From an uncultured Bacillales bacterium (GTDB lineage: Bacteria > Bacillota_I > Bacilli_A > RF39 > UBA660), in NCBI GenBank assembly GCA_905206805.1, contig CAJLIR010000006.1, positions 2,999-66,998 of the forward strand: a stretch of DNA of 64,000 nucleotides. Direction: 5' to 3'. This document shows positions 21,085 through 47,268 of the stretch, piece by piece. Numbering within the stretch: position 1 is the stretch's first letter; each line of letters opens with the position of its first letter. The notes below the pieces were generated by a model. It did not search any database. It was not told where the DNA came from and saw only the letters and a list, made by a program, of their open reading frames with translations. A program made the position numbers and the translations under genes.

Positions 21085-21112
21085 ATAAATTCTACTTTTT
21101 TATATCTATAAT
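20322..21112. repeat. about 790-bp direct repeat, copy 1 (3' part of gene 20116-21084 plus 28 bp downstream)
   Basis: Near-identical sequence at 26094-26880. Confidence 0.85.
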
Positions 21113-25933: not shown

Positions 25934-26093
25934 TTAAACTGTTCAATCATTTTTTTGTAATAAGAAATTTATAGATAAAATTACAAAAAAAGTTTTAAAG
26001 ATTATTGATATATTAAAGAATTTATTATTGTAATAATTTGAATTATGTAGAAAATTTATATAAAAATATTATGTAAAATATAAACTCAAACTT

Positions 26094-30400: not shown

Positions 30401-33400
30401 GAGTTGAATATTAATACCATTGCTTATTATAATGGTGCATCTATTGAGATAATAGGCGGCCACTATTTGGAAAAAAGTGGTGTTATAACTGTAACTTCTA
30501 AATTAGAAGGTCTAGAAGATTCTGTTTATAAAATTAATTATACAAAAACTTCTGATATTGATGTTCCCGAAAATTTATATGAGTATACTGGTGATGTTCA
30601 AACATTTACGGCATTATATGGTGGAAAATATAAAATAGAATTATGGGGAGCTGCTGGTGGACGTGGAAGAACTAATTATGTATTAGATAAATATGGTGGT
30701 TCTGGAGGTTACACAAGTGGTGAAATAGTACTTAATCAAAACCAAGTTTTGTATGTTTATGTTGGAGGTAAAGGAAAAGATTCAGCAAGTGTATCTAGAT
30801 GTGTAGGTGGACTTGGAGGATATAATGGTGGAGCCAAAGGTGGTATTGATGGAAACTGTGATTCTAATCCTGAACCTGGAGCTGGTGGCGGAGGAGCTAC
30901 AGACATTCGTTTAGTTGGTGGTATTTGGAATGATACTGATTCATTAAAAAGCCGTATTATGGTTGCTGGAGGTGGTGGAGGAGCCACTTATAATGTTACC
31001 GGTTCATCCGCTGGTGGATTAGAAGGATATATTGGAAATAAAGGAAAATCGGCTGCAACTCAAATATCTGGTAATGCATTTGGATATGGCACTATTGTTT
31101 CTGATTCGGATTATACTGTTGGCCCAGGAGGAGCTGGAAGTGGATATTATGCTGGTACAACTAGTAGAAGTGATGGTTCATCTGGTGGAGGTGGATCAAG
31201 CTTTATTTCTGGACATGCCGGAAGTATAGCCATAAATGAAGATGGTAATCCTAAAACCACACTTTTTACAACTTTAAGTGATTCATATCATTATTCTAAT
31301 TTTGTTTTTACTAATACTGTTATGATAGATGGAAAAGGGTATAATTGGACTACTAAAAAAGAAGGTGTAACTTCTATGCCAGATCCTTATGGGGGATATT
31401 ATAAAGATGGTACTGGAAATTCTAAAGATGGCTATGCTAGAATAACTTTATTATCTACTTTAAGTAGTAATAATTTCTTAGATTCTCTTACAATTAACGA
31501 TGGTGATATTTCGATTGCATTTGAGCCTTGGATTACAGAATATGATTTAAATCTTGAAGAAGATGATAAATATATAAAAATTTCTGCTAAAGCGAAAGAT
31601 GAAGATGCTGTTATTAGCGGTTTAGGTACTGTCACTGTGCCACCTGGCAATAGTAAACAAACAATCTCTGTTACAGCAAGTGATGGAAGTGTTAGAAATT
31701 ATGTATTAAATATAAATCGTAAGGGTTCGAGTGACCCATATCCTTTAGACATACAAATAAATAAAATGAATCCTTATTTATGTCAAAAAGATTCTCATTA
31801 TTGTAATTATACTTTTAATAAAGATACAACTAATTATGAAATTACTTTACCTTTTATGCTTAATGAAGTTGAGGTAAAACCTATTTTAAAATCAGAATAT
31901 CAAAGTGTTATTTATAGAAAAGTAGAAGCTGATAATACAACTGAACTAGAAAATGGTACTTTTAGTTTAACAAATGATATAAATACTTATCAAGTAGAAG
32001 TTACTAGTGAGGATGGAACTCAAAATATTGTTTATACATATGTATTTAAAAGAGATATGACGGGTAATAATAATTTAACTAGTTTAAAAATTGTTAATCC
32101 AGATATTGAAATTGATTTTGATCCATATAAATATGAGTATTATGGAACAATTACTTCAGCTTATACAAATTATGATATTGAAGCAATTCCTGAAAGTAGT
32201 GATGCAAAAGTTTCTATTACAGGAAATACTAATTTGGTTTTAGGAATTAATGATGCTATGGTAATTGTTACTGCTTCTAATGGTGATACTAAAACTTATT
32301 TACTTCATATTTATAAAGAGCAAGATAGTAATGTGTTTTTGAAAGAATTAGAAGTTGTTGGAAATGGAAGTTCTTTAGAGTTATCACCACAATTTAATAA
32401 ATTGTTAAATGATTATGTTATAAGTGCTCCTTCAAATGTGAAATCTGTTACTATAAATGCAACTCCCGAAAGTGGCAGTGCATCTGTTACTGGATTAGGT
32501 AATAAAGTTTTAAAATCTGGTATAAATAATTTTAGTGTTCAAGTAACTAGTGAAAGTGGAGATGTTAATGTTTATAATTTGACAATTAATAAAGATAAGA
32601 ATTTTAATCCACTACTTTCTAATATTGAAATAGATGGATATACTTTTGAAGAAGAATTTAGTCCTACAAATTATGAATATTATTTAAAAATACCAAAGGA
32701 TGTTACTTCGCTTGATTTAAATGTTACTCCACAGGAATCTACTACAAATTATAGAATTAGTGGGAATCGTAATTTAGTAAAAGTAAATAATACTATTACA
32801 ATTCATAGTGTTGCTGAGAATCAAACCTCAAAAGATTACTATATATATGTATCAAAACCTCTTTCATCAAATAATTATTTGAAAGATATTAAGTTAAGTA
32901 CAGGCACCTTAAATGAAGAATTTAATAAAGAAACACTTGAATATACTATGGATATTTCAAGTGATGTTGAGAGTATAGATGTTACCGGAATTTTGGATGA
33001 TTCAAGTTCAATTATAAAGGGTAATGGTACATATTATTTATCCACAGGTGTAAATGTAATTAAACTTGTTGTTCAAAGTGAAACAGAAGAGGAACGTATA
33101 TATACTATAACAATAAATAGGGATAAAAATGATGATGCTGGTTTAAAAAAGGTAAATAATAGCGCAGGTAGTAGTGTTATACTAAATGATACAGAAGAAT
33201 ACCAATATTTGATTAATGTTCAATATGAGGTAAATCAAATAGAGATAAATGGTATTCCAAATGTATCAACATCAACAGTAAATGGTAATGGTACGTATTC
33301 ATTAAAGGTTGGAAATAATGATATTGTTTTAAGCGTTCAAAGTGAGAAAGGAACAGTAAAGACATATATTGTTAGGGTCGTAAGAGATTTATCCTTAAAT

Positions 33401-36400
33401 GATGATTTGAAATATTTATTTGTTAAAGAAGGCGCTCTTTCTCCTAGATTTCAAGATACAACTATTTTATATGATGTTAAAATTCCTTCTAATGTTGATA
33501 AATTAACTATTGATGCTATTACGGAAGATGAAAATGCTACGTATGAAATTATTGGTAATCAAGATTTTGTTGAGGAAACTGAAAAGGAAGTAATAGTTAG
33601 AGTTACTGCTCAACGTGGAAATACTAAAGATTATAAATTGCGAGTTGTTAAACAAAAAGTAATAACTGAAGAATTTTATTTAGATTCTTTATCTATAGAT
33701 TCTGGTATCTTAAATCCTACTTTTGATCCTAAAACTCAACTATATTATGCGTCTGTTGATTATAATGTTAATGAGATTACTTTAACTGGTGGCACTAATG
33801 ATCCAAACGTTAGAGTATATGGAAATGGTACATATTCTTTAAATGTTGGGAAAAATCCACTTGCTATTTCTATAATAAATAGTGAGGGTCTTCAAAAAGA
33901 TTATCAAGTTATCGTGACAAGAAAGGAATCTGATGATGCTACATTATCTTCACTTGTAGTAAAGGGTAATAAATTAAACCCTAAGTTTAATAAGAATATT
34001 GATAATTATACTTTAACTACAAGCAAATCTTTTCTAGAGTTTACTACAATTAAAACAACAGAAAATGATGCCACATATGAAGTAATTGGTAATAAAAATT
34101 TTACAACTGGTATAAATACTGTAACTATAAGAGTTACTGCTCCTGATAAAACAAAAACTCATGATTATGTACTTTCTGTAAATAAAAGTGCAGATACAAA
34201 CAATAATTTAGCATCTTTGAGTGTTCTTGGTAATACTTTAATACCTAATTTTCATAAAGGTGTAACAACATATACCATCAATGTTTCAAATGAAATAAAC
34301 AATGTTGTTATTGAAGCTACACCAGAAGAGAAAACATCTACGGTAACAGGAACAGGGTCACAACAAATTAATGTTGGTACTAATAAAATTGATGTTGTTG
34401 TAACAAGTGAAGCAGGAACTCAAAAAAAATATACAATTATTGTTACAAAAGATGAATCAGATAACAACTTTTTGGCAAATCTTTATACAAGTGAAGGAAT
34501 TTTAACTCCAAATTTTGATAAAGAAATATTAGAATATAATATAAATGTTCCTAATGAAGTTGATGAGATAGAAATAGATGGTAAATTAGAAGATTTATCT
34601 GCATCTACAAATGACTTTAAATTATATTCTTTAAATGAAGGCGATAATTCAATTTATATTACTGTAACAAGTCAGGCTGGAAGTGTACGTATATATAAAA
34701 TAAATGTCAATAGAGAAGAAAAAGTAAGTTCTTATTTAAAGAATTTAGAAATAGAAAATTATGATTTAGATCCCGAGTTTGATAAAGAAAATTTTGAATA
34801 TTTTATTAATGTTAATAATGAAACAACAAAATTAGATATTTCTTTAGAAACAGAAGATGAAAATGCTAATGTTGAAGTATCTGGAAATGAAAATTTTTCT
34901 GTAGGAATGAATATAGTTACAATTACAGTAACAACAACGGATTCGACAACTTCAACTTATGAAATTTATGTTAATAGGAATTTATCTACTAACAATTATT
35001 TAAGTAGTATTGAATTATCTAGTGGTACATTGAACCCAGAATTTAATCCAAATACAATGAATTATGTGGTAGATGTTGAAAATAATATTTCAAGCATAGA
35101 TATTAATGCAGTAGTGCAAGATTCACAATCAGTTGTAACAGTTGGTAATGGAACTCATACTTTAATTACAGGAGAAAATGAAATTGTTATTAAAGTTAAA
35201 TCGGCAATAGGAGTATATAGAGTATATACACTAAAAGTAAATAGAAAAAAATCTGATAATAATTATTTATCAAGTTTAATTGTTACTTCTAATAATAAAA
35301 ATATACCAATAAATTTTGAAAAAACTAATAATAATTATTCAATAAATGTTGATAGTTCAGTTGATTATATCAATATAAAGGCGTTTTCTGAGGAAAAAAG
35401 TTCTACTGTAAGTAATATAGGTACTAAAAAAATAAATTTAGGAATCAATAACTTTGAAATATTAGTTACTAGTGAGTCTGGTCTTGTAAATGTATATAAG
35501 TTAACTGTAGAAAGAAAAGCTAGTAGTAATAATAATGTTATTTTAATAAAACCAAGTGTTGGATTATTAAATGTTTCATTTGATCCAAAAATAAAAGAAT
35601 ATACATTAAATGTAGATAAAGATGATAATTTACTTTCCTTTGATGTTAACTTAGAAGATAGTAAAGCAATTGTTACTGGTTACGAAGAAAAAATTATTAC
35701 TGATGGAACAAGTGTAAGAACAATAACAGTAACAGCAGAAGATGGCAGTACAAATATATATACTTTTAATGTAATAAAAGAAAATCAAAGTGAAGCTAGA
35801 TTATCTAGTTTAAAAATAAAAGGTTATGAAATAAATTTTGATAAAGATAAATTTATTTATAATATAGAAGTAGCTGGTAAAAAAAGTAAATTACTAGAAA
35901 GTGAAATAGAAGCAATACCATTAGATAATGAAGCAAATGTAAATTTGATGGGTGATATAGAATTATTACGAGATATAAATAATAAATATATTATTGAAGT
36001 TATTGCTAAAGATGGTTATACGACACAAGAATATATATTAAATATAACTAGAGGTCCTATATTAGAAAATATTACTGTAAATAAAAATTTGTTTAAAATA
36101 GTAGAAGGTGAAACAGATACTATTTTAGTAACTACTGATCCTTTAGATTTTAAAACTGATATAAAATATGAAGTAGAAGATGATAGTATTGTAAGTGTTG
36201 ATGATGCTGGATTAATAACAGGTTTAAGTGTAGGGAAAACTACAATTAAAGTAATAGCAGTAGAAGATGAAAATATTACAAAAACATTAAATATAGAAGT
36301 AATACCAAAAGAGATAAAGAGTTCATATAGTATTAATAGAGATGAATATAAATATATAATTGGTATGGATGCTGGAATAACTGTTGATGATTTTTTAACA

Positions 36401-36733
36401 AGTATTGAAAATGATAAAGAGTATACAAAAATTTATAATGGAGAAGAATTTGCTGATAATTCTGAAATAATTAAAACAGGACAAATTATAAAACTAGAAA
36501 TAAATGATAAAGTATATGATGAATTGATAATAATTGTTAGAGGAGATATTAACGGTGATGGAAAAATAAACATATCTGATAGTGTTATATTGCAGGATTA
36601 TGTTTTGCTAAAAGAAAAAATAACTGATTATAGAGAATACTCAATGGAATTAACAAAGGATGGGAAAATAAATATATCTGATACTGTTAGACTTAATGAA
36701 TATATTTTAAAGAAAATTAAAACTTTAAACTGA
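27428..36733 (+). CDS. giant secreted surface protein (3101 aa): signal peptide, 3x glycine-rich (ALK/LTK-type Gly_rich-like) domains, about 25 cadherin-like beta-sandwich domains, a Big_2-like Ig domain, C-terminal dockerin
   Basis: Signal peptide. Three roughly 290-aa modules begin Y(G/S)xYKIELWGAAGG and carry multiple poly-Gly stretches (GAGGGATDVRLV, SRIMVAGGGGG, GGSSFISG). Dozens of roughly 90-aa repeats follow the L.SL.v..G.L.P.F......Y...V......V...A.......v.g.G......G.N.I.I.V.....t..Y.i.V.R pattern. C-terminal GDINGDGKINISDSVILQDYVL...KDGKINISDTVRLNEYIL is a dockerin duplicated Ca-binding segment. Confidence 0.9.
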   Translation: MYKNKNLIILIFSLVLFFVFYPDVFAQEISEFSCTDDYQEFIAPTYGNYKIELWGAAGGRNLVDNAYTNTTYAKLGGKGAYTSGVITLKKNEKIYVYVGCKGRDAKKATIVAGGYNGGGRGDHDHSDDEASGAGGGATDVRLVKGDNWDDFTSLKSRIMIAGGGGGASYELRGGNAGTLSGEDTLYSKGGTQTTGYKFGIGQDGVYVNSNVDVAGGGGGYFGGFAKSSGASNSYKTAGAGGSSFVSGCTGCTAISGNSTEDNIYFLNSNIHYSNYKFSDIVMKSGSEEMPNYLDNSVITGNSSDGHARITLINGISHFTKLDIENATIVQKLEDSVFEYDVIIPNDNFSTTINYETSVKNVTVFGAGKVTLKDGKVHMVSIIDNDTGDITIYNITPSLKKSTLKSISFSEKQFDFNPDQYEYTIEVPYNIFDLTPIIETYDNTTYTIEKSTLKIGNNLVKINVSTQGMENSTYKFYVKRQESNNLKTIYESTGSSEEYVVPYSGYYEIELWGAAGGRGRTNYVLDKYGGKGGYTKGTIYLEKGTILYFYVGGKGLNAASVSRCVGGLGGYNGGAQGGIDGNCDSNPEPGAGGGGATDVRLVGGDWNNIDSLKSRIMVAGGGGGGTYSYVGSSAGGLNGYAGGAAKTFATQISGNAFGYATMVSNSDYTGGPGGSGSGYYGGITNKSDSASGGGGSSFISGHAGSIAINEDGIPKTNVYTVLDNSIHYSNYKFEDTVMIDGNGYEWTTKKETQIGMPTFDGKSKMNGNENSGYAKITFLGRGKEDTLDFIALSSGTLDPVFDPDTKEYNVTLDSSVSQLTVDATSSNPDIAIYGLGEYDIPSGKTDINIQLTSVNGNVNLYTIHVTRDANSNKYLSNVLINGIKYDLFSPSKFEYNIELPTSINYIDLEVIKGSTSQEVTGTGKFEFSNNSISKTILVVSEDKNESQHYIFNFTRKKSTKLKSIDLGNELIKNFDFGSDIYEYNIEIPNNILELNINTIAYYNGASIEIIGGHYLEKSGVITVTSKLEGLEDSVYKINYTKTSDIDVPENLYEYTGDVQTFTALYGGKYKIELWGAAGGRGRTNYVLDKYGGSGGYTSGEIVLNQNQVLYVYVGGKGKDSASVSRCVGGLGGYNGGAKGGIDGNCDSNPEPGAGGGGATDIRLVGGIWNDTDSLKSRIMVAGGGGGATYNVTGSSAGGLEGYIGNKGKSAATQISGNAFGYGTIVSDSDYTVGPGGAGSGYYAGTTSRSDGSSGGGGSSFISGHAGSIAINEDGNPKTTLFTTLSDSYHYSNFVFTNTVMIDGKGYNWTTKKEGVTSMPDPYGGYYKDGTGNSKDGYARITLLSTLSSNNFLDSLTINDGDISIAFEPWITEYDLNLEEDDKYIKISAKAKDEDAVISGLGTVTVPPGNSKQTISVTASDGSVRNYVLNINRKGSSDPYPLDIQINKMNPYLCQKDSHYCNYTFNKDTTNYEITLPFMLNEVEVKPILKSEYQSVIYRKVEADNTTELENGTFSLTNDINTYQVEVTSEDGTQNIVYTYVFKRDMTGNNNLTSLKIVNPDIEIDFDPYKYEYYGTITSAYTNYDIEAIPESSDAKVSITGNTNLVLGINDAMVIVTASNGDTKTYLLHIYKEQDSNVFLKELEVVGNGSSLELSPQFNKLLNDYVISAPSNVKSVTINATPESGSASVTGLGNKVLKSGINNFSVQVTSESGDVNVYNLTINKDKNFNPLLSNIEIDGYTFEEEFSPTNYEYYLKIPKDVTSLDLNVTPQESTTNYRISGNRNLVKVNNTITIHSVAENQTSKDYYIYVSKPLSSNNYLKDIKLSTGTLNEEFNKETLEYTMDISSDVESIDVTGILDDSSSIIKGNGTYYLSTGVNVIKLVVQSETEEERIYTITINRDKNDDAGLKKVNNSAGSSVILNDTEEYQYLINVQYEVNQIEINGIPNVSTSTVNGNGTYSLKVGNNDIVLSVQSEKGTVKTYIVRVVRDLSLNDDLKYLFVKEGALSPRFQDTTILYDVKIPSNVDKLTIDAITEDENATYEIIGNQDFVEETEKEVIVRVTAQRGNTKDYKLRVVKQKVITEEFYLDSLSIDSGILNPTFDPKTQLYYASVDYNVNEITLTGGTNDPNVRVYGNGTYSLNVGKNPLAISIINSEGLQKDYQVIVTRKESDDATLSSLVVKGNKLNPKFNKNIDNYTLTTSKSFLEFTTIKTTENDATYEVIGNKNFTTGINTVTIRVTAPDKTKTHDYVLSVNKSADTNNNLASLSVLGNTLIPNFHKGVTTYTINVSNEINNVVIEATPEEKTSTVTGTGSQQINVGTNKIDVVVTSEAGTQKKYTIIVTKDESDNNFLANLYTSEGILTPNFDKEILEYNINVPNEVDEIEIDGKLEDLSASTNDFKLYSLNEGDNSIYITVTSQAGSVRIYKINVNREEKVSSYLKNLEIENYDLDPEFDKENFEYFINVNNETTKLDISLETEDENANVEVSGNENFSVGMNIVTITVTTTDSTTSTYEIYVNRNLSTNNYLSSIELSSGTLNPEFNPNTMNYVVDVENNISSIDINAVVQDSQSVVTVGNGTHTLITGENEIVIKVKSAIGVYRVYTLKVNRKKSDNNYLSSLIVTSNNKNIPINFEKTNNNYSINVDSSVDYINIKAFSEEKSSTVSNIGTKKINLGINNFEILVTSESGLVNVYKLTVERKASSNNNVILIKPSVGLLNVSFDPKIKEYTLNVDKDDNLLSFDVNLEDSKAIVTGYEEKIITDGTSVRTITVTAEDGSTNIYTFNVIKENQSEARLSSLKIKGYEINFDKDKFIYNIEVAGKKSKLLESEIEAIPLDNEANVNLMGDIELLRDINNKYIIEVIAKDGYTTQEYILNITRGPILENITVNKNLFKIVEGETDTILVTTDPLDFKTDIKYEVEDDSIVSVDDAGLITGLSVGKTTIKVIAVEDENITKTLNIEVIPKEIKSSYSINRDEYKYIIGMDAGITVDDFLTSIENDKEYTKIYNGEEFADNSEIIKTGQIIKLEINDKVYDELIIIVRGDINGDGKINISDSVILQDYVLLKEKITDYREYSMELTKDGKINISDTVRLNEYILKKIKTLN

Positions 36734-36800: not shown

Positions 36801-36829
36801 TTTACAAATAATATACATTTTGTTATAAT
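36801..36829 (+). promoter_or_regulatory. putative promoter of the 1851-aa gene operon (TTTACA, 17 nt, TATAAT with TGT extension)
   Basis: TTTACA at 36801-36806, 17-nt spacer, TATAAT at 36824-36829 preceded by TGT; GGGAGAG RBS before 36871. Confidence 0.4.
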
Positions 36830-36870
36830 ATAATTATAATAAGTAAAGTATAGTTAGAAGTTGGGAGAGC

Positions 36871-39800
36871 TTGAAAATGAAATTAGTAAAAAAAAATAAT
36901 TTTTTTCTGTTATTTATTATAATGTTATTTTCTTTTGGATTTAATGTTATATCTGTAAATGCAGAAGGTGAACATCAATTTTCATTAAAGGTTTATGATT
37001 GGAATGCTTTTGATAATGATTGGGAAGGTTCTGGTACGGGAGAAGAAATTTCTAATAATGGTACTATAGAACCTGGTAAAGTATATAAATTATCTATTTA
37101 TTATATTCCAGGAACAATTACAGAAGTAGGTATGCAAATGGGGATTAAGTATAATAATCTTTTAATTGAACCGATGTATGCAGATGGTGAATTGTATACA
37201 GAAACTGATATGTCAACAACATACCAAGGTGGTATATGGCCTGCATCAGGTACAACACCATCCGCAAAAAAGAAAACAAATTGGCAAGTATTGTCAAATG
37301 ATGCAAGTGATGAAAGTATGTTTACATTTATGGCTACGGATACAACAACTTCAAATGCTCTTGAAACAGAAGGAGAAATTGCAAGTGTGTATTTTAAAGT
37401 AAAAGATACAGTGACATCAGGAACAAATATAATTTTTGAATATGATGATGAATATACAGCACTTAATAACGATAGACCTAAAGTAACATCAGGAATAAAT
37501 TTAACAGTTCAAACAGCTTTAAGTTCTAATTCGGCACTTCATACATTAAGTGTCACAAATAGCGAAACAACTTATAATTTAACCCCAACTTTTACAGCAG
37601 ATGATAATACAATTAAAGAATATAGTACAGTTGTACCTTCATCAGTAACAAGTGTTGATTTAAGTGCAACAGCAACAGATTCTAATGCCAGCGTGTTAAG
37701 TGGCGGATTGGGTATAAAAGAATTAAATATTGGAAATAATGATTTTAATATAGTTGTAACCGCTGGGGATGGTTCAATTACTACTTATAAGGTGTCAGTT
37801 TATAGATTAAATGATGATGCTACATTAAAATCATTAGATTTAACAAATAATGTTAATATTGGAGAATTTAATAGTGCAACTACTGAATATGAGGCAAGCG
37901 TACCATACGCAACTAAAAATACAGTTGTAAGTGCAACAACAACAGATCAAAATGCAAGTATTAAATCTGGAACTGGAAGTTTTGAATTTACTAATTGTGG
38001 TACTACTCCTAATACTAAGGAAATAATAGTAAATGCTGAAAACTGTAAGGAAGAATATGCAAGTGTTCCAAATAATGCTTGTACTACAAAAACATATACA
38101 GTAACAGTAAATAGAGAAAATCCTTCTAATAATAATTATTTAAGTAATTTAAAAGTAAATGGACAAACAGTAACTGATTTTAATAAAGAAAAATTAGAAT
38201 ATACATTGGATGATGTAAAAGGTGATGTTTCAAGTATAGAAGTTTCAGCTACAGCCGAAGATACAAAAGCAAGTGTAGTAGGAACTGAAAATAAATCACT
38301 AAGTATTGGTGATAATAGTATAGAAGTAGTTGTAACAGCAGAAGATGGATCAACTAAAATTTATACAATAAAAGTTAAGAAGTTATCAAATGATATAGCA
38401 CTTAAATCATTAACTGTAACAAGTAACCCTATGGGAACATTAACTCCAAGTTTTGCAAGTACAACTTATGCTTATACATATAATTATGATGCAACAGTAA
38501 CAAGTTTAAATGTTACAGCAACAACAAATAATACAAATGCAAAAGTAGGAATTATTGATAGTGATTCAAGTGATATTATGACAAGTACAATCGGAAGTGC
38601 AGCAAAAACATTTAATTCATCTACAAAAAATGTAAAAGTAACGGTAACAGCTGAAGATGGTACAACAAAAGATTATACAATTGTTTTATCAAGAGATAAA
38701 TCAACAGATGCAACATTAGATAGTTTAACAGTAAGTGAAGGAACATTAACTCCAACATTTAATAAAAATACATTAAATTATACAGTAAATGTTGATAATG
38801 ATGTTACCAGCATTGATGTAAATGCAACATCAACAGATTCAAATGCTACAGTAACTGGTACAGGAACTAAACAATTAAATACAGGAAATAATTTAATTAA
38901 TATTGTAGTTAAAAGTGAATCTGGAACCGAAAACACTTATACAATAAATGTAATAAGAGCAAAGAGTTCTAATAATTACTTAAGTGATTTAAAAGTAAAT
39001 GGGCAAACAGTAACTGATTTTAATAAAGAAAAATTAGAATATACATTGGATGATGTAAAAGGTGATGTTTCAAGTATAGAAGTTTCAGCTACAGCCGAAG
39101 ATACAAAAGCAAGTGTAGTAGGAACTGAAAATAAATCACTAAGTATTGGTGATAATAGTATAGAAGTAGTTGTAACAGCAGAAGATGGATCAACTAAAAT
39201 TTATACAATAAAAGTTAAGAAGTTATCAAATGATATAGCACTTAAATCATTAACTGTAACAAGTAACCCTATGGGAACATTAACTCCAAGTTTTGCAAGT
39301 ACAACTTATGCTTATACATATAATTATGATGCAACAGTAACAAGTTTAAATGTTACAGCAACAACAAATAATACAAATGCAAAAGTAGGAATTATTGATA
39401 GTGATTCAAGTGATATTATGACAAGTACAATCGGAAGTGCAGCAAAAACATTTAATTCATCTACAAAAAATGTAAAAGTAACGGTAACAGCTGAAGATGG
39501 TACAACAAAAGACTATACAATCGTTTTATCAAGAGCTTTATCAAATAATAGTTATTTAAAAGATATAAGTATTGATGGAACTAATATTGATGGATTTAAT
39601 AAAGAAAATTTTGAATATAATATAAAAGTTTCAAGAGAAACAGATAGTATTAATATATCTGCAATTTTAGATGATGAAAAGGCAACTTTAACTACAGATT
39701 TATCTAATAAATTTAGTTTAAATCTAGGAACTAATAAAATAAATATTGTAGTAACGGCAGAAAATGGTGATACAAGCACTTATGTATTAAATATTGAAAG

Positions 39801-42426
39801 AGAAAAGAATAATGATGCAACATTAGATAGTCTAACAGTTAGTAAAGGAACATTAACTCCAGCATTTAACAAAAACACATTAAATTATACAGTAAATGTA
39901 GAAAATGATGTTACAAGTATAGAGGTTTCAGCTACAGCAACAGATTCAAATGCTACAGTAACTGGTACAGGAACTAAACAATTAAATACAGGAGATAATA
40001 CAGTTACAATAAAAGTAACAAGTGAATCTGGATCAGAAAATACTTACACAATAAATGTAATAAGAGCAAAGAGTTCTAATAATTACTTAAGCGATTTAAA
40101 AGTAAATGGGCAAACAGTAATTGATTTTAATAAAGAAAAATTAGAATATACATTGGATGATGTAAAAGGTGATGTTTCAAGTATAGAAGTTTCAGCTACA
40201 GCCGAAGATACAAAAGCAAGTGTAGTAGGAACTGAAAATAAATCACTAAGTATTGGTGATAATAGTATAGAAGTAGTTGTAACAGCAGAAGATGGATCAA
40301 CTAAAATTTATACAATAAAAGTTAAGAAGTTATCAAATGATATAGCACTTAAATCATTAACTGTAACAAGTAACCCTATGGGAACATTAACTCCAAGTTT
40401 TGCAAGTACAACTTATGCTTATACATATAATTATGATGCAACAGTAACAAGTTTAAATGTTACAGCAACAACAAATAATACAAATGCAAAAGTAGGAATT
40501 ATTGATAGTGATTCAAGTGATATTATGACAAGTACAATCGGAAGTGCAGCAAAAACATTTAATTCATCTACAAAAAATGTAAAAGTAACGGTAACAGCTG
40601 AAGATGGTACAACAAAAGACTATACAATCGTTTTATCAAGAGCTTTATCAAATAATAGTTATTTAAAAGATATAAGTATTGATGGAACTAATATTGATGG
40701 ATTTAATAAAGAAAATTTTGAATATAATATAAAAGTTTCAAGAGAAACAGATAGTATTAATATATCTGCAATTTTAGATGATGAAAAGGCAACTTTAACT
40801 ACAGATTTATCTAATAAATTTAGTTTAAATCTAGGAACTAATAAAATAAATATTGTAGTAACGGCAGAAAATGGTGATACAAGCACTTATGTATTAAATA
40901 TTGAAAGAGAAAAGAATAATGATGCAACATTAGATAGTCTAACAGTTAGTAAAGGAACATTAACTCCAGCATTTAACAAAAACACATTAAATTATACAGT
41001 AAATGTAGAAAATGATGTTACAAGTATAGAGGTTTCAGCTACAGCAACAGATTCAAATGCTACAGTAACTGGTACAGGAACTAAACAATTAAATACAGGA
41101 GATAATACAGTTACAATAAAAGTAACAAGTGAATCTGGATCAGAAAATACTTACACAATAAATGTAATAAGAGCAAAGAGTTCTAATAATAATTTAACAG
41201 ATATTAAAGTAGATGGTAATAGTATTGAAAACTTTAGTTCAAATACTTTAAAATATAATTTACCAAAGGTAAGCTATAATAGAACAAGTATAAATGTAGA
41301 AGCTATATTATCAGATTCAAAAGCTAGCGTAACCGGGGTTGGTAATGTTTCATTAAATACTGGTGATAACAAAATAGAAATAATTGTAACTGCCGAAGAT
41401 GGAACCGCTAAAACTTATGAATTAAATATTGAAAGAAAAAAAAATAATAATGCTAAATTACAAAGTTTAAGTATTGGCAATTATACATTAACTCCAGCAT
41501 TTAATAAAGATACTTTAGAATATACTGTAACAGTAGGTGAAGATGTAAATATTTTAAATCAAGATGATGTAATTGCAATCCCAGAAGATAATAATGCAAC
41601 AGTTGTAAAACAAGGTAATTTAGAGTTATCTACAACATCTGATAATTATTATAGAGTAACAGTAACAGCTGAAAATGGTGTTGATAAAAATGTTTATGCT
41701 ATTAAAGTAATTCGTCCAAAATCAAGTGATGCTACTTTAAAATCATTAGAAATAATTGGTGGAAAATTGACTCCAACATTTAATAAAGATACTTTAGAAT
41801 ATAATGTTACAATGGGTAAAGATGTTACTAAATTTAATAAAGATAATATAAAAGTATCAATAAATAATGGTAATGCTAAAATTAGTTATAACAATGAAAT
41901 AATAATTAATAGTGATACATTTACTAAGTATATAATTACAGTAACAGCTGAAAATGGTTCTAAAAAGGAATATATCTTAAATGTAAAAGTTGATACAGAA
42001 TTGGATAAAATCACATCTAGCAGTCATACAATTAATGATGAATATATTAAAACAGTAAGATTATATGAAACAGGTAGAGAATTAAAGGATGAGTTGGATA
42101 ATGATAATGCTTATCTTGAAATTTGGACATCTGATGAATCAAGAAAAGTTGAAGATGATGAAAAATTATCAACTGGAATGATTGTAAAATTAGTTATTAA
42201 TGGTGTTTTAAAAGATAGAAAAATCATTGTTATTAGGGGAGATACATCTGGTGATGGTGAAATAGATTTGTTAGATGCTGTTAAAATATTAAATAATGCA
42301 TTGCAAAAAGCAATGTTAGATGGAGCTTATAAAGAAGCAGCATTTGTAAATAATGATGATGAAATTGACTTATTGGATGCAGTTATGATTTTAAATCATT
42401 GTTTACAAAAACAACCTTTATATTAG
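36871..42426 (+). CDS. giant secreted surface protein (1851 aa): signal peptide, N-terminal cohesin-like domain, about 16 cadherin-like beta-sandwich domains, C-terminal dockerin-like module
   Basis: N-terminal region (aa about 35-215) shows the cohesin-like pattern (KVYKLSIYYIPG..EVGMQMGIKYNNLLIEP ... GEIASVYFKVKDTVTSGTNIIFEYDD). Repeated cadherin-like domains. C-terminal GDTSGDGEIDLLDAVKILN...NNDDEIDLLDAVMILNHCL is a dockerin-like duplicated segment. Confidence 0.85.
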   Translation: MKMKLVKKNNFFLLFIIMLFSFGFNVISVNAEGEHQFSLKVYDWNAFDNDWEGSGTGEEISNNGTIEPGKVYKLSIYYIPGTITEVGMQMGIKYNNLLIEPMYADGELYTETDMSTTYQGGIWPASGTTPSAKKKTNWQVLSNDASDESMFTFMATDTTTSNALETEGEIASVYFKVKDTVTSGTNIIFEYDDEYTALNNDRPKVTSGINLTVQTALSSNSALHTLSVTNSETTYNLTPTFTADDNTIKEYSTVVPSSVTSVDLSATATDSNASVLSGGLGIKELNIGNNDFNIVVTAGDGSITTYKVSVYRLNDDATLKSLDLTNNVNIGEFNSATTEYEASVPYATKNTVVSATTTDQNASIKSGTGSFEFTNCGTTPNTKEIIVNAENCKEEYASVPNNACTTKTYTVTVNRENPSNNNYLSNLKVNGQTVTDFNKEKLEYTLDDVKGDVSSIEVSATAEDTKASVVGTENKSLSIGDNSIEVVVTAEDGSTKIYTIKVKKLSNDIALKSLTVTSNPMGTLTPSFASTTYAYTYNYDATVTSLNVTATTNNTNAKVGIIDSDSSDIMTSTIGSAAKTFNSSTKNVKVTVTAEDGTTKDYTIVLSRDKSTDATLDSLTVSEGTLTPTFNKNTLNYTVNVDNDVTSIDVNATSTDSNATVTGTGTKQLNTGNNLINIVVKSESGTENTYTINVIRAKSSNNYLSDLKVNGQTVTDFNKEKLEYTLDDVKGDVSSIEVSATAEDTKASVVGTENKSLSIGDNSIEVVVTAEDGSTKIYTIKVKKLSNDIALKSLTVTSNPMGTLTPSFASTTYAYTYNYDATVTSLNVTATTNNTNAKVGIIDSDSSDIMTSTIGSAAKTFNSSTKNVKVTVTAEDGTTKDYTIVLSRALSNNSYLKDISIDGTNIDGFNKENFEYNIKVSRETDSINISAILDDEKATLTTDLSNKFSLNLGTNKINIVVTAENGDTSTYVLNIEREKNNDATLDSLTVSKGTLTPAFNKNTLNYTVNVENDVTSIEVSATATDSNATVTGTGTKQLNTGDNTVTIKVTSESGSENTYTINVIRAKSSNNYLSDLKVNGQTVIDFNKEKLEYTLDDVKGDVSSIEVSATAEDTKASVVGTENKSLSIGDNSIEVVVTAEDGSTKIYTIKVKKLSNDIALKSLTVTSNPMGTLTPSFASTTYAYTYNYDATVTSLNVTATTNNTNAKVGIIDSDSSDIMTSTIGSAAKTFNSSTKNVKVTVTAEDGTTKDYTIVLSRALSNNSYLKDISIDGTNIDGFNKENFEYNIKVSRETDSINISAILDDEKATLTTDLSNKFSLNLGTNKINIVVTAENGDTSTYVLNIEREKNNDATLDSLTVSKGTLTPAFNKNTLNYTVNVENDVTSIEVSATATDSNATVTGTGTKQLNTGDNTVTIKVTSESGSENTYTINVIRAKSSNNNLTDIKVDGNSIENFSSNTLKYNLPKVSYNRTSINVEAILSDSKASVTGVGNVSLNTGDNKIEIIVTAEDGTAKTYELNIERKKNNNAKLQSLSIGNYTLTPAFNKDTLEYTVTVGEDVNILNQDDVIAIPEDNNATVVKQGNLELSTTSDNYYRVTVTAENGVDKNVYAIKVIRPKSSDATLKSLEIIGGKLTPTFNKDTLEYNVTMGKDVTKFNKDNIKVSINNGNAKISYNNEIIINSDTFTKYIITVTAENGSKKEYILNVKVDTELDKITSSSHTINDEYIKTVRLYETGRELKDELDNDNAYLEIWTSDESRKVEDDEKLSTGMIVKLVINGVLKDRKIIVIRGDTSGDGEIDLLDAVKILNNALQKAMLDGAYKEAAFVNNDDEIDLLDAVMILNHCLQKQPLY
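38135..38975. repeat. first, partial copy of the intragenic tandem repeat (A+B units, about 840 bp)
   Basis: The 560-bp A unit (aataattatttaagtaatttaaaagtaaatggacaaacag...ttatcaagag) recurs almost identically at 38975 and 40082. Confidence 0.8.
38975..41188. repeat. two near-identical 1107-bp tandem repeat units inside the 1851-aa gene (each encodes about 4 cadherin-like domains)
   Basis: Identical 228-bp stretches, shown by identical reverse-strand ORFs at 39552-39779 and 40659-40886 (offset 1107 bp); only a few SNPs between units. Confidence 0.85.
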
Positions 42427-42435
42427 GAGGCAATT

Positions 42436-44550
42436 ATGAAAAAATTTAAAAATTTAAACTTGTTTATAGTATCTGGCTTTATATTTCTATTTTCTATCTT
42501 TTTTATAACTCCAGTATATGCTTTAGGAAGTGCTACAGTAGGTTTTAGTGGCAATTCTACTGTTAGTGTAGGTAGTAATATAACAGTACAATTATATGTA
42601 TCAAATGTTAATGATGCAAATGGTGGTGTTGCAAGTTTTGAAGGAAATCTTTCTTTTGATTCTGATTATTTGGAATATGTATCAGGATCTGGTGCAACAA
42701 CTCCTTATTTGTTTCAAATAAATACAGCTGCAAATTATAAAATTGCAGCTCTTGATACATCTTTAAGTAATGGCATTAAAAGTAGTAGTTCGACTAACGT
42801 TTTTACCTTTGTATTTAAAGCAAAAAAAGAAGGCTCAACAACTGTTAGTATTACAAATTTAAAATTGACTAATAGCAGTGAGAGAATGACTGGTAATGTT
42901 AGCCCAAAAACAATTACGATAAATACTCCTGCACCAGTTACAAAATCAAGTGATGCAACACTTAAAAGTTTATCAGCAACAGGCTATACATTAAGTCCTG
43001 AATTTAATAAAGATATTACATCTTATAAGATTAAAGTTCCAGCAACTGCTACAACAGTTAGTTTACAAGGAAGTGCTAATCATAGTAAGGCAACAGTATC
43101 AGGACTTGGTAATATAAATTTAACTGGTGATACAACTGTTGCAACAATAAAAGTAACAGCCGAAGATGGAACGGTAAAAAATTATACAGTAACAATTGAA
43201 AAAGAAAAAACTACTCCTGTTACAAAGAGTAATGATGCAACACTTAAAAGTTTGGATGTTAGTGGATTTACTTTAAATCCAACTTTTAAAAGTAATGTAA
43301 ATACTTATTCTATTAGGGTTAATAATAATATAACTGGTTTAAAAGTTACTGCTATTGCTAATAGTGATAAAGCTAGTGTTTCTATATCTGGAAATAGTGA
43401 TTGGGAAGAAGGAAACAATATAATTACAATAAAAGTAACAGCAGAAGATGGAACAGTTAATAATTATATTGTTAATGTTAATAGAGCTTCACTAAATACA
43501 ACAAAAGCTATAAATAAATCGAGTGACAATTATTTAAAGAGTTTAATCATTCAATCATCACACGAAATGAAACCTATTTTTGATAAGAATTTAACTAATT
43601 ATAATATTACAGTACCTTATGAGGTTAGCAAACTTGATTTAACTGCTACTAGTAATGACTCTAAAGCAAAAGTTGAAATAATAGGTAATAGTAGTTTTAG
43701 TGTTGAAAAAGTAAATCTTGTTGAAGTTAAAGTAACTGCTGAGGATGGAAGTATTCGTATTTATTCTTTAAACGTTACTCGTAGTACAACTTCTAGTAAA
43801 ACTGATTTAAAAGATTTAGTAATAGATAATGTTAATTTAAGTCCAAAATTTGATTCAAATATTTTAGATTATACTGCTAATGTTGATGCTAAAACTGATA
43901 AATTAAATATTAGATATACAACTAGTAATAGTGATAGTAAAGTCGAAATAATTGGTAATGATAATTTAAAAGAAGGAAATAATACTGTTTTAATAAAAGT
44001 AACTGATAAGGAAGGCTTTACTAAGTATTATTCGATAAATGTTGTAAAAGAAAAATCAGGTAGTACTATTTTAGGTCTTAAACCACTTCATTTTGTACTT
44101 CTATTCTTTATAATACTTCTTTTAATTGCGATAATTATTATTTTATTAATAAAAAGAAAAAAAGATGAGAACAAAAAATTGGAAGAAAAGAAGTTAATGC
44201 AAACGCAACCAATAATTGAAGTAAAACCAGAATTTAATTTTAATTCAAAGAATTCTTCTGATGATGATGTTGTACACGGAAATATGAGTCAAAATAGTGG
44301 TACTATAGGGACAAATCCAGAAAAGAAACAAATTTTTGATGCTAGTTATGAAAATAAAATTCCTTATGACCCTTATGATGAAACAGTTACTAAACAAGAA
44401 TTAATTGATGCAATTCACGAAGCATCAGAAAAAAAGGATGTGTCTAAACTTCAAATGTTGTTGAGGCAAGAAGAGTTAAATAAGATGAAAAAAGAATTAA
44501 AGGAAAAAGAGGATTTAGAACAAAAAGAGGAAGATGAAAAATGGTGGTAA
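42436..44550 (+). CDS. membrane-anchored cohesin protein (704 aa): signal peptide, cohesin domain, 4 cadherin-like domains, TM helix, charged cytoplasmic tail of about 130 aa
   Basis: N-terminal SATVGFSGNSTVSVGSNITVQLYVSNVNDANGGVASFEGNLSFDSDYLEYVSGSG...VFTFVFKAKKEGSTTVSITNLKLTN matches the cohesin fold pattern. TM LHFVLLFFIILLLIAIIIILLI followed by a KRKK stop-transfer. RBS TAGGAGG 10 nt after the upstream gene's stop. Confidence 0.8.
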   Translation: MKKFKNLNLFIVSGFIFLFSIFFITPVYALGSATVGFSGNSTVSVGSNITVQLYVSNVNDANGGVASFEGNLSFDSDYLEYVSGSGATTPYLFQINTAANYKIAALDTSLSNGIKSSSSTNVFTFVFKAKKEGSTTVSITNLKLTNSSERMTGNVSPKTITINTPAPVTKSSDATLKSLSATGYTLSPEFNKDITSYKIKVPATATTVSLQGSANHSKATVSGLGNINLTGDTTVATIKVTAEDGTVKNYTVTIEKEKTTPVTKSNDATLKSLDVSGFTLNPTFKSNVNTYSIRVNNNITGLKVTAIANSDKASVSISGNSDWEEGNNIITIKVTAEDGTVNNYIVNVNRASLNTTKAINKSSDNYLKSLIIQSSHEMKPIFDKNLTNYNITVPYEVSKLDLTATSNDSKAKVEIIGNSSFSVEKVNLVEVKVTAEDGSIRIYSLNVTRSTTSSKTDLKDLVIDNVNLSPKFDSNILDYTANVDAKTDKLNIRYTTSNSDSKVEIIGNDNLKEGNNTVLIKVTDKEGFTKYYSINVVKEKSGSTILGLKPLHFVLLFFIILLLIAIIIILLIKRKKDENKKLEEKKLMQTQPIIEVKPEFNFNSKNSSDDDVVHGNMSQNSGTIGTNPEKKQIFDASYENKIPYDPYDETVTKQELIDAIHEASEKKDVSKLQMLLRQEELNKMKKELKEKEDLEQKEEDEKWW

Positions 44551-46241
44551 AAAATATATTAAATAAGAATATTAAATTATTTCTATTTTCTATTCTTTCT
44601 TTTTGTTTTCTTTTATTTCCATTTATAGCTAAAGCTGATGGAAGTGTGTCATCTGGCTTTAGTGGAAATGATAGTGTTTATGTCGGAAATACTATTGATG
44701 TAACTCTTTATGTAAATGAAAGTGGTAGTGCTTCAGGTATTATGGCAATACAAGGAAGTTTGTCGTATGATAGTAGTAAATTAACGCTTTTAAATTCAGT
44801 TTCATTAGCGCCATATCAAATTCAAATAAATGGTAATAGTATTGCCGGGATGGATACTAGTGGTTCCAGAACAATCAGAGGTTATTCAAATATAATGAAA
44901 TTTACATTTAAAGCAAATTCACTAGGAAGTGCTACAGTAAGTTTTAATGGAGCTAAATATATTGATGGCAACAATTCTTATATTAACGGTGGTGGATGTA
45001 GTAGAACAATAAATATTGTAAATCCTCCTAGTTCAAATAATAATTTAAGTAGTTTGACAGTTAGTAGTGGAAATATCAATTTTGATAAAAATAATACTAA
45101 CTATAATATAAGTGTTGATTCAAATGTAACAAGTATAAATATTGGTGCAACTGCAGAAGATGGGGGAGCTAGTGTATCAGGAACTGGAACTAAAAATTTA
45201 GGATACGGTAATAATTCTTTTGGTATTACTGTAACAGCTCCAAGTGGTGCTACAAAAACATATACAGTAAATGTTAATCGTAAAGATGATAGAAGTAGTA
45301 ATAATAAACTTTCTAGTTTAAGTGTAAATGATGGTGAAATTAATCCTAGTTTTAATGCAGATAATGAGTCTTATGATGTATCAGTTCCATTTAGTGTAGA
45401 TAATTTAAGAATAAATGCTAAAGCACAAGATGGTAAATCAAGAATTGATATTTCTGATACTTCTTTAATTGCTGAGGAAACAAAGGATATATATATAACG
45501 GTAACAGCAGAAAATGGAGCTAAAAAAATCTATACAATTCATGCTACCCGTGGTAAAGATCCGAATAAAGTTCTTTCAACGAATAATTTTTTAGAAAGTT
45601 TAACTGTAAGTTCAGGTGTACTTAGTCCAATTTTTAATAAAGAACAGGATAAATATATCATTTATCTTCCTTATGAAGTTGATTCAATTGATATAACAGG
45701 TATTGTAGAGGATAAAAGGTATGCAACTATAAAAAAAGATGGACCAGAAAAATTAAGTGTTGGAAATAATACTTATACTTTATCTGTAACATCAGAAGAT
45801 AACTCAGTTAGAACATATACAATAATTGTATCAAGAGGAATAAGTATGACTGAGGAAACATTGAGTTCTAATATTTATTTAAAAAGTATTAAATTAAAAA
45901 AAGGTTCATTAAAAGAATCATTTGACAAAGAAATATTTGATTATACTTATACTGGTAGTGAAGTAGAAGCAATTCCTGAAGATGAAAATAGTACGGTGAC
46001 GGTTATAAATCGTAATAATAAAATAATTATTATGGTAAAATCTCCTTCAGGAAGTATTGGTATTTATACATTAACTCCATATAAGTCAAATTTAATTAAT
46101 ATTATTATTTATATAATTTTATCTTTAACAAATATAGTAGGTGGAGTAGGATTTTATATAATATATAAAAAAAATAAAAAGAACAATTCTAAAGTAAAAA
46201 AACAAGATAAAGAGAGAATAACAGTAGATAATAAAAACTAG
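44541..46241 (+). CDS. membrane-anchored cohesin protein (566 aa): signal peptide, cohesin domain, about 4 cadherin-like domains, C-terminal TM anchor
   Basis: SVSSGFSGNDSVYVGNTIDVTLYVNESGSASGIMAIQGSLSYDSSKLTLLNSVS...IMKFTFKANSLGSATVSFNG matches the cohesin pattern. C-terminal TM IIIYIILSLTNIVGGVGFYIIY followed by KKNKKNN. Overlaps the upstream gene by 10 nt (operon). Confidence 0.8.
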   Translation: MVVKNILNKNIKLFLFSILSFCFLLFPFIAKADGSVSSGFSGNDSVYVGNTIDVTLYVNESGSASGIMAIQGSLSYDSSKLTLLNSVSLAPYQIQINGNSIAGMDTSGSRTIRGYSNIMKFTFKANSLGSATVSFNGAKYIDGNNSYINGGGCSRTINIVNPPSSNNNLSSLTVSSGNINFDKNNTNYNISVDSNVTSINIGATAEDGGASVSGTGTKNLGYGNNSFGITVTAPSGATKTYTVNVNRKDDRSSNNKLSSLSVNDGEINPSFNADNESYDVSVPFSVDNLRINAKAQDGKSRIDISDTSLIAEETKDIYITVTAENGAKKIYTIHATRGKDPNKVLSTNNFLESLTVSSGVLSPIFNKEQDKYIIYLPYEVDSIDITGIVEDKRYATIKKDGPEKLSVGNNTYTLSVTSEDNSVRTYTIIVSRGISMTEETLSSNIYLKSIKLKKGSLKESFDKEIFDYTYTGSEVEAIPEDENSTVTVINRNNKIIIMVKSPSGSIGIYTLTPYKSNLINIIIYIILSLTNIVGGVGFYIIYKKNKKNNSKVKKQDKERITVDNKN

Positions 46242-46332: not shown

Positions 46333-46779
46333 ATGGGTAGTGTTTTGAAAAAATTAGATAAAAAGGTTTATATTTTAATATTTGCTATTATTTTAATATT
46401 GGTTATTGCCTTTTTTATAATAAAAAATATTAATAGAAAAGAAATAAGTGAAGAAGAAAGATTATCAAATTTATTAATAAAAATGAGTAGTGAATTTTAT
46501 GAAAATTTTTATTATGATCAAATAGGCAGTACAGAAGAAGATAGAATTAATTTTGTAAAAAAATACGAAACTATTGGTATAAAGTTTAATCTTGATAATT
46601 TATCAAGATATAATTTTGATGAAAATAATGAATTAATTAAAGAGTTTATTAATTCAAATACTAATCTAGAATGTAATAGAGTTAATACAAAAGCAATTAT
46701 TTATCCAGTAGAACCATATTCAAAGAAATCATATAATATAAAAATAGAATTAGATTGTAGTCTTGATAATAATAAATAA
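46333..46779 (+). CDS. small secreted / membrane-anchored protein; paralogue of 26933-27355
   Basis: N-terminal TM; conserved core SEFYENFYYD...KYETIGIKFNLDNLSRY...TKAIIYP...C...C. Confidence 0.55.
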   Translation: MGSVLKKLDKKVYILIFAIILILVIAFFIIKNINRKEISEEERLSNLLIKMSSEFYENFYYDQIGSTEEDRINFVKKYETIGIKFNLDNLSRYNFDENNELIKEFINSNTNLECNRVNTKAIIYPVEPYSKKSYNIKIELDCSLDNNK

Positions 46780-46845: not shown

Positions 46846-47268
46846 ATGAAAAAAATATTATGTATTATATTATGCTTTTGTATGTTTTTACCATTTTCAA
46901 TAAAGGCTGATGAAGTTGATTTAGCACCTAATGCAGGAAGTGCAGTTTTAATGGAATTTGAAACAGGTGAAATAATTTTTGAAAAAAATTCTCACGAGAA
47001 ATTGCACCCAGCATCAATGACAAAAATTATGTCTATGTTAATAATTATGGAACATATTGATAAAGGTTTAATTGGTTGGGATGATGTAGTAACAGCAAGT
47101 GAGAATGCATCTGGTATGGGAGGCTCACAAATTTTACTTGAAACTGGCGAAAAAATGAAAGTTAGTGATTTATTTAAGGGAATTGCGGTTGCAAGCGGAA
47201 ATGATGTGGTGGTAGCCAAAAAGCAGTCGCTAGTTATAGGAGAAGAAATAATAATAGAACAACATTAA
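46846..47268 (+). pseudogene. truncated 5' duplicate of the D-Ala-D-Ala carboxypeptidase gene (first about 116 codons), ending in unrelated junction sequence
   Basis: 46795-47196 is about 99% identical to 48978-49388 (promoter, RBS and 5' coding region of the gene at 49028). It diverges after GIAVASGND into a short tail that recurs at 57473-57545. Confidence 0.65.

Follow-up and report, generated by a model that had tools for sequence, protein, structure and literature searches.

What is the role of a large secreted protein that begins with a cohesin-like domain, ends with a dockerin and is encoded between a giant dockerin protein and two membrane proteins that expose cohesins? The question is raised by a 64,000-nucleotide (nt) stretch of DNA (the window) from an uncultured Bacillales bacterium (GTDB lineage Bacillota_I; Bacilli_A; RF39; UBA660), which comprises positions 2,999–66,998 of contig CAJLIR010000006.1 in assembly GCA_905206805.1. 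The window is strongly AT-rich (G+C ~25%), and its plus strand, on which all features described below as parts of the cluster lie, carries a run of genes at 26933–27355, 27428–36733, 36871–42426, 42436–44550, 44541–46241 and 46333–46779. An initial annotation, made from the letters and their open reading frames (ORFs), proposed that the protein encoded at 36871–42426 could either act as an adaptor, binding the dockerin of the giant protein while itself docking to the membrane cohesins, or polymerize head to tail.

Cohesin-dockerin assembly is understood almost wholly from cellulosomes and, lately, amylosomes. Here we compare the modules encoded in the window with protein families, solved structures and 29 related loci. 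Based on these comparisons, we put at roughly 60% the probability that the protein serves as an adaptor scaffoldin without enzymatic function, within a cohesin-dockerin system that uses two specificities to display proteins on the cell surface.

Results

Architecture of the proposed adaptor and of its neighbors

The ORF at 36871–42426 opens at a TTG codon at 36871, giving 1851 amino acids (aa), and an ATG at 36877 gives 1849 aa. Because a GGGAG Shine-Dalgarno sequence lies at 36862–36868, the ATG is the likely start. The exact 1849-aa sequence (36877–42426) is on record in NCBI/ENA, without annotation. The protein, which we call the adaptor, consists of a signal peptide (ending in …VNA, before EGEHQ), a divergent N-terminal cohesin (CohN; residues 32–220, 36964–37530), a spacer of ~15 cadherin-like β-sandwich domains (37531–42006; Pfam PF12733, E = 1.1e-150 in 15 stretches), a pre-dockerin module of ~75 aa (42007–42237) and a C-terminal dockerin (DocB; residues 1790–1846, 42238–42408). 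The interval to which the initial annotation had drawn attention, 36967–37515, corresponds to residues 33–215, the first domain past the signal peptide. Cohesin, Cadherin-like and Dockerin_1 are the only Pfam matches in the adaptor that are above threshold or otherwise supported, as matches to DUF5018, DUF1214 and THAP4_heme-bd fall under their cut-offs. Like known adaptor scaffoldins, it is thus a secreted, non-catalytic protein that combines a cohesin with a dockerin.

The gene upstream (27428–36733) encodes a giant secreted protein of 3101 aa, with a signal peptide, glycine-rich, cadherin-like and Big_2 domains, a pre-dockerin module similar to that of the adaptor (alignment A5) and a C-terminal dockerin (DocA; residues 3039–3096, 36542–36715). 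Its Pfam matches are PF12810 (E = 1.2e-142, 3 stretches), PF12733 (E = 6e-109, 19 stretches), Big_2 (E = 2.8e-8) and Dockerin_1 (E = 9.5e-7). The N-terminal half contains three ALK/LTK-type glycine-rich domains (PF12810), a domain known from animal receptor kinases, each of which is followed by cadherin-like domains. The giant protein is the only neighboring dockerin protein, and Pfam detects no enzyme domain in it; since this cargo lacks an enzyme domain, it is not a cellulosome component.

How do these two proteins reach the cell surface? In both, the signal peptide is the sole hydrophobic segment, and hydropathy reveals no membrane anchor. Pfam also finds no S-layer homology (SLH) domain in either protein, although sortase (LPXTG) motifs were not searched for. 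Docking appears to be the only visible route to the cell surface for the giant protein and the adaptor.

The two genes downstream of the adaptor encode proteins on which such docking could occur. Anchor 1 (42436–44550, 704 aa) consists of a signal peptide, a cohesin (residues 29–168; Pfam Cohesin E = 3.4e-9, 37.5 bits), four cadherin-like domains, a transmembrane helix assigned by hydropathy (residues 551–572, 44086–44151) and a charged cytoplasmic tail of ~130 aa. Anchor 2 (44541–46241, 566 aa) has a signal peptide, a cohesin (residues 32–163; 28.4 bits and E = 2e-6 in Pfam when scanned alone), three cadherin-like domains (E = 7.7e-28), a transmembrane helix (residues 518–542, 46092–46166) and a short tail. 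In both, the cohesin scores above the Pfam cut-off, and one C-terminal transmembrane helix leads into a basic stretch and then the cytoplasmic tail. No SLH domain is found in either anchor by Pfam, and the anchoring is not the SLH- or sortase-based kind of cellulosomes. A local hidden Markov model (HMM) scan of the whole 64 kb detected no cohesin or dockerin beyond those of the cluster.

The N-terminal domain of the adaptor

Does the N-terminal domain belong to the cohesins? By itself, CohN of the window matches Pfam Cohesin (PF00963) with E = 3e-4 and 21.4 bits, just under the 24.1-bit cut-off, and its six best sequence matches among solved structures, all of them cohesins, have E values of 0.1–0.4. 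The identity of CohN as a cohesin rests on its family; the window sequence alone is thin evidence. The family is small: a search of 5.8 billion clusters yielded six close relatives, and one of 1.84 billion yielded 50 representatives. Eighteen of the 33 members that we aligned (alignment A2) match Pfam Cohesin (best E = 8.5e-8), and the only other Pfam family to match any of them is SEF14_adhesin, in one member at E = 0.0038. When the family profile was compared with solved chains, all 28 matches at E < 1 were cohesins, with 3l8q (1.8e-5) first and 1aoh (9.7e-5) next.

The initial annotation had likened this domain to the cohesins of the two anchors. By BLASTP the resemblance is not significant (E = 0.5 and 2.5), such that profile methods were needed; with these, the resemblance was recovered, as hhalign aligned the CohN profile with the five cohesin types of the membrane proteins at 86% probability (E = 4.8e-6, 102 columns).

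Structural modeling agrees with the profiles. The AlphaFold model of CohN is all-β, with a predicted local distance difference test score (pLDDT) of 68.6 and a predicted template modeling score of 0.71, and has the nine-stranded β-sandwich (jelly roll) of a cohesin domain. In a Foldseek search with the model, ranks 1–25 are cohesin chains (E values down to 2.8e-7) except for rank 22, the uncharacterized Thermus protein TTHA1873. The initial annotation had named a non-cohesin fold, on modeling against known cohesins, as the result that would speak against its proposal; both Foldseek and the family profile returned cohesins.

CohN differs from the neighboring cohesins in an insertion of ~27 aa (…DMSTTYQGGIWPASGTTPSAKKKTNW…), opposite which the membrane cohesins have a gap in the profile alignment. 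The insertion is the most conserved motif of the family, D-x-s-T-T-Y-q-G-G-I-W-P…k-k-T-N-W, at domain residues ~74–108. It is modeled poorly, with the stretches 81–91 and 93–100 at pLDDT below 50, and may serve as a flap at the interface or have a structural role.

The two dockerins

The initial annotation also described the C terminus of the adaptor as dockerin-like, and this identification holds. As part of the C-terminal 139 aa, DocB matches Pfam Dockerin_1 (PF00404) with 23.5 bits, above the 22.9 cut-off; in the context of the whole protein the score is 19.4 bits. A profile built from 21 dockerins, 19 of them from members of the CohN family and the other two DocA of the window and DocA1, matches solved dockerins with E values of 7e-22 to 1e-12 (including 3e-15 and 2e-13). 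DocB contains the two duplicated segments of ~22 residues, each an EF-hand-like loop plus helix, that are expected of a dockerin (GDTSGDGEIDLLDAVKILNNALQ and FVNNDDEIDLLDAVMILNHCLQ). The first consists of DTSGDGEIDLLD followed by AVKILNNALQ and has the canonical residues D1, S3, D5, D9 and D12. The second, FVNNDDEIDLLD followed by AVMILNHCLQ, carries Phe at position 1 in place of Asp or Asn. In an AlphaFold model of the pre-dockerin module plus DocB (pLDDT 60.5), three dockerin helices are present at low confidence, and the pre-dockerin module is the only part with a pLDDT of 75–85. Foldseek with this model returned nothing below E = 0.2 and hence no fold match.

DocA of the giant protein matches Dockerin_1 with 29.4 bits (cut-off 22.9) and is found by the local dockerin HMM with E = 1.4e-23. 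Internal symmetry is seen in its two segments, GKINISDSVILQDYVL and GKINISDTVRLNEYIL. A homologue search with its pre-dockerin module plus DocA returned five fragments only.

DocA and DocB differ in sequence type. The helix residues after each calcium loop are IS…SV in DocA and LL…AV in DocB. We also considered whether DocA of the window might be of the same type as DocB of a related locus, L002, and rejected this assignment, since the helix register differs (SVILQDYVL versus SIGILGHYL).

What is observed in the window is therefore a secreted adaptor with CohN at one end and DocB at the other, a preceding giant protein with a dockerin of a different type, and, in the genes that follow, type I membrane proteins that expose a cohesin.

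Related loci and the co-variation of modules

To which cohesin would each dockerin bind? We identified 29 related loci, five in genome bins and a further 24, by a scan with alignment A1, on human-gut metagenome contigs. The bins are labeled as uncultured Bacilli or “Tenericutes,” as “Clostridium sp. CAG:433,” and as a rabbit bin. The window and ~20 of these 29 loci share one gene order, in which the giant dockerin protein is followed by the adaptor with CohN and dockerin and then by the membrane cohesin; the remaining loci are short contigs or lack the giant gene. The cluster, with one or two genes for membrane-anchored cohesin proteins at its end, is thus conserved in uncultured human-gut Bacilli. 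Most related loci have exactly two cohesins and two dockerins, with a single membrane cohesin. The architecture of signal peptide, CohN and dockerin is found in the ~24 full-length proteins among the 50 family representatives, and two minimal members (268–281 aa) consist of a cohesin and a dockerin only.

We typed the four modules (DocA, CohN, DocB and the membrane cohesin, CohM) at 85% identity, which gave five combinations. Between L007 and L002, the body of the giant protein (98.1%), the body of the adaptor (97.7%), DocB (100%) and CohM (99.3%) are conserved, while DocA and CohN are only 56.2% and 67.7% identical. Nucleotide identity falls from ~99% to 68–90% only across CohN, the last part of the giant gene and the intergenic region between them, and is back at 97–100% exactly at the CohN domain boundary. 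Between L001 and L002 the other half of the system differs: the giant body (96.9%), DocA (100%) and CohN (90.2%) are shared, while the adaptor body (52.1%), DocB (26.3%) and CohM (30.9%) diverge, with the breakpoint likewise at the C-terminal edge of CohN. A trend across types points the same way, as DocB types 1 and 3 (59% identical) go with CohM types 1 and 3 (49%), DocB types 2 and 4 (40%) with CohM types 2 and 4 (43%), and DocA types 2 and 3 (76%) with CohN types 3 and 4 (68%).

Since DocA is 100% identical in L001 and L002 despite membrane cohesins that share 30.9%, DocA appears indifferent to the exchange of the membrane cohesin. By the same comparison, CohN appears indifferent to the exchange of DocB, as it is 90.2% identical beside DocBs that are 26.3% identical. 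Given both tolerances, the pairs left within a locus are DocA with CohN and DocB with CohM. That DocA co-varies with CohN and DocB with the membrane cohesin, and that CohN does not co-vary with DocB, is consistent with bridging. Of the two arrangements put forward in the initial annotation, module co-variation among the 29 loci favors the one in which the adaptor binds the dockerin of the giant protein and docks to the membrane. By orthology, DocB and the 704-aa cohesin of the window, both of type 4, correspond to the DocB2/CohM2 pair of L002.

In L007, an extra ORF of 350 aa (7996–9048 of that locus) lies between the giant and adaptor genes, inside the DocA/CohN patch that is replaced relative to L002.

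Several observations weigh against an adaptor that bridges these particular partners. First, the proposed partners are also neighbors in the DNA, with DocA beside CohN and DocB beside CohM, so that exchange of a contiguous stretch by recombination could produce this co-variation even if the modules did not interact. Second, the independent events are few, amounting to two clear mosaics and five module combinations. Third, L004 and L010 encode an adaptor and an anchor without an adjacent giant gene, and the partner of CohN therefore need not be encoded nearby. Fourth, the window carries two membrane cohesins, of which orthology pairs only that of the 704-aa protein with DocB. Lastly, the second calcium loop of DocB is partly degenerate, without an acidic residue at position 1.

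Alternative arrangements

Could both dockerins instead dock on the membrane? DocA and DocB would then each bind a membrane cohesin, one each in the window, and CohN would recruit dockerin proteins encoded elsewhere or a ligand that is not a dockerin. The window does have two membrane cohesin proteins for its two dockerins, the L002-type membrane cohesin is most similar (43%) to that of the 704-aa protein, and DocA of the window has the residues I-S-D-S after the calcium loop, as does the L002-type DocB. Moreover, CohN is not always beside a DocA, as in L004 and L010. However, the likeness between DocA of the window and DocB of L002 is superficial, given their different helix registers, and most loci have only one membrane cohesin. 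The strain comparisons also speak against parallel anchoring: L001 and L002 share an identical DocA (100%) beside membrane cohesins of only 31% identity, and in L007 DocA changed along with CohN while the membrane cohesin is still 99% identical. We consider parallel anchoring unlikely, but it is the best of the alternatives.

A second alternative is that CohN is an adhesin with a cohesin fold, or a structural immunoglobulin-like domain, that binds no dockerin, in which case the protein would be a fibrillar adhesin anchored through its dockerin. The conserved insertion of ~27 aa, which is absent from the neighboring cohesins, the score of the window's CohN under the Pfam cohesin threshold and the position of CohN at the distal tip, which is typical of adhesive domains, are all compatible with this idea. 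Nonetheless, every line of sequence evidence leads to cohesins alone, TTHA1873 is the sole exception to cohesin chains among the first 25 Foldseek hits, and the localized co-divergence of CohN and DocA in L007 would be hard to explain if CohN did not recognize dockerins. These considerations make a purely adhesive or structural CohN improbable.

Least probable of all is self-polymerization, in which CohN would bind DocB of another copy to form filaments that are capped or anchored at the membrane cohesins: although cohesin and dockerin are kept in one polypeptide in the ~24 full-length proteins, make up the whole of the minimal members and recognize each other in Amy4 of Ruminococcus bromii (PMC4611034), a self-recognizing pair should co-vary, and CohN and DocB do not, as CohN is 90% identical in L001 and L002 beside DocBs that are 26% identical and of different helix type, and DocB is 100% identical in L007 and L002 beside CohNs that share only 68%.

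Repeats, expression signals and tails

The adaptor spacer contains internal repeats at 38130–41136 that are 98–100% identical and spaced by 1107 nt and 840 nt (families D1–D4), each unit comprising two to four cadherin-like domains. Tandem Repeats Finder did not report these repeats, whose size exceeds its longest period. Close relatives of the adaptor are 1111 aa (P0007), 1571 aa (L006) and 1849 aa (P0008 and the window) in length. As these differences correspond to whole repeat units, copy number varies between strains, and the length of a fiber would vary with it.

A scan for sigma-70 sites, which scores consensus matches only and whose total number of sites is not above chance in such AT-rich DNA, has as its best hit (11 of 12 matches) a promoter-like site upstream of the adaptor gene (36801–36829), in which TTTACA and TATAAT are separated by 17 nt and a TG is present. 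An AT-rich hairpin and a T-run after the stop codon of the giant gene precede it. A separate promoter for the adaptor, for which this evidence is weak, would agree with the loci that hold an adaptor and an anchor without the giant gene. The stop codon of the adaptor lies 10 nt from the start of anchor 1, and the genes for anchors 1 and 2 overlap by 10 nt; this spacing suggests that the adaptor and anchor genes may be co-translated.

The cohesin of anchor 2, which is 41% identical to that of anchor 1, is found, among the related loci, only in the window and in the conspecific L006. In the tail of anchor 1 (44152–44547), a segment …TKQELIDAIHEASEKK…LLRQEELNKMKKELKEKE that looks like a coiled coil by eye is shared with the L002-type anchor, at the C terminus of an 813-aa protein. 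This conservation hints at an intracellular partner. Anchors of the L001 and L004 type have another conserved tail.

Genes surrounding the cluster

Two paralogous small membrane proteins bracket the cluster in the window, one of 140 aa (26933–27355) and one of 148 aa (46333–46779), which match each other with E = 3e-39 by phmmer. The downstream member is a neighbor conserved with the system, as L001 (18430–18927) and L004 (18607–19113) carry orthologues immediately after the gene for the membrane cohesin (E values of 1e-29 to 4e-35). These paralogues and orthologues are 140–168 aa long, and a Pfam scan gave no match for them. They may belong to the cohesin-dockerin system as a conserved accessory part.

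Just upstream of the cluster, a direct repeat of 789 nt (99.6% identity) at 20323–21110 and 26090–26878 duplicates the 3′ part of a 322-aa ORF. Its copies flank ~5 kb that includes an ORF resembling an ATP-binding cassette transporter (22377–24128), other ORFs and, at 21252–21707, an ORF with an apparent resemblance to the C-terminal half of an IS256-type transposase. The region looks like an insertion or a segmental duplication. Downstream of the cluster, a Peptidase_S11 D-Ala-D-Ala carboxypeptidase is present at 46846–47268 as a 140-aa fragment of its N terminus. An HTH_36 gene (47344–48069) and a 258-aa ORF come next, and then a full-length PBP5-type carboxypeptidase (49028–50182) that is confirmed by Pfam. 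The fragment and the full copy suggest that an insertion here led to a duplication of the gene's 5′ end.

The source organism may be a spore former. By Pfam, the protein encoded at 50289–51416 resembles an exosporium filament protein in that it combines a BclA C-terminal domain with a collagen triple-helix repeat, and a Cys-rich ORF at 9501–9854 has, by eye, the look of a spore coat protein. Among the ordinary chromosomal genes of the window are those that we take, also by eye, to encode RNase J, FtsY, Ffh and FeoB.

Discussion

If the adaptor bridges the giant protein and the membrane, how would the parts fit together? DocB would plug into a membrane-anchored cohesin, by orthology most likely that of the 704-aa protein, and CohN, at the distal end of the adaptor, would capture DocA of the giant protein. 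Together the parts would form a three-tier fiber that leads from the membrane anchor through the adaptor to a giant cargo with ALK-type glycine-rich domains. Its two cohesin-dockerin pairs would be orthogonal to each other and would pass between lineages as cassettes.

Such an arrangement follows the adaptor-scaffoldin logic of complex cellulosomes (PMC5934362). The adaptor scaffoldins ScaB of Acetivibrio cellulolyticus and ScaA/ScaB of Ruminococcus flavefaciens, the latter with the anchor ScaE, are likewise secreted, non-catalytic proteins that use cohesins and a C-terminal dockerin to link cargo to a cell-bound cohesin. Both they and the system in the window have clustered genes. They use at least two orthogonal cohesin-dockerin specificities, as is predicted for the window. 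Solved modules from cellulosomal adaptor systems (3l8q, 4uyp_A/B and 5lxv) are also among the best matches in our searches. The differences are equally clear. The adaptor in the window has one cohesin, at its extreme N terminus and of a divergent subfamily with a conserved insertion; its spacer is made of ~15 cadherin-like domains; no carbohydrate-active enzyme domain was found in its cargo; its anchors are held at the cell by a transmembrane helix, in place of SLH domains or a sortase signal; and its host belongs to an uncultured low-GC lineage of gut Bacilli, not to the cellulolytic clostridia. The system would work like an adaptor scaffoldin, but lacks two features that define a cellulosome, the enzyme cargo and the mode of anchoring.

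Other comparisons lie outside cellulosomes. Toxin and glycosidase complexes of Clostridium perfringens employ cohesins and dockerins outside plant cell-wall degradation, and the C. perfringens cohesins 2vo8, 2jh2 and 2w1n are among the structural matches of CohN. A 2009 survey by Peer and colleagues reportedly covers non-cellulosomal cohesin and dockerin modules. The reported cases are mostly single modules on enzymes or toxins, unlike the assembly proposed here. Closer in habitat is Amy4 of R. bromii, whose cohesin recognizes its own dockerin, whose dockerin binds the cell-anchored cohesin protein Sca2, and for which head-to-tail self-polymerization has been proposed (PMC4611034). Amy4/Sca1 resembles the adaptor in coming from a human-gut Firmicute, in being non-cellulosomal and in having one cohesin and one C-terminal dockerin per polypeptide (PMC4611034). 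However, Amy4 is a GH13 enzyme with its cohesin beside its dockerin, whereas the adaptor is non-enzymatic with the two modules at opposite ends; Sca2 is anchored by sortase, whereas the anchors in the window are transmembrane proteins; and the Amy4 cohesin is self-recognizing, whereas our strain comparisons argue against self-recognition by the adaptor. The literature that we searched describes no assembly of this kind, dedicated and two-tiered, in which three genes supply giant cadherin-like proteins and transmembrane anchors. The adaptor principle itself is known, and its use outside cellulose degradation with a non-enzymatic cargo would be a variant.

A more far-reaching possibility, which we hold tentatively and at less than even odds, is that the cluster encodes a dedicated, enzyme-free surface organelle of uncultured human-gut Bacilli. 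It would be a three-tier fiber, perhaps 100–200 nm long, built with two orthogonal pairs. Swapping of these pairs as cassettes at module boundaries, together with variation of length through the near-identical 840-nt and 1107-nt repeats, would diversify an adhesive or host-facing structure. The CohN subfamily with the TTYQGGIWP…TNW insertion would then represent a new type of cohesin.

If the adaptor does function in this way, plug-and-socket logic, including an adaptor tier, would be used by abundant uncultured gut Bacilli to mount giant non-enzymatic proteins on their cells, with transmembrane helices as anchors and with socket-plug pairs that are apparently swapped between strains as cassettes. 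Should this be confirmed, protein engineers would gain a natural source of orthogonal cohesin-dockerin pairs, and the attachment of these uncultured bacteria to hosts, particles or partner cells would become more accessible to study.

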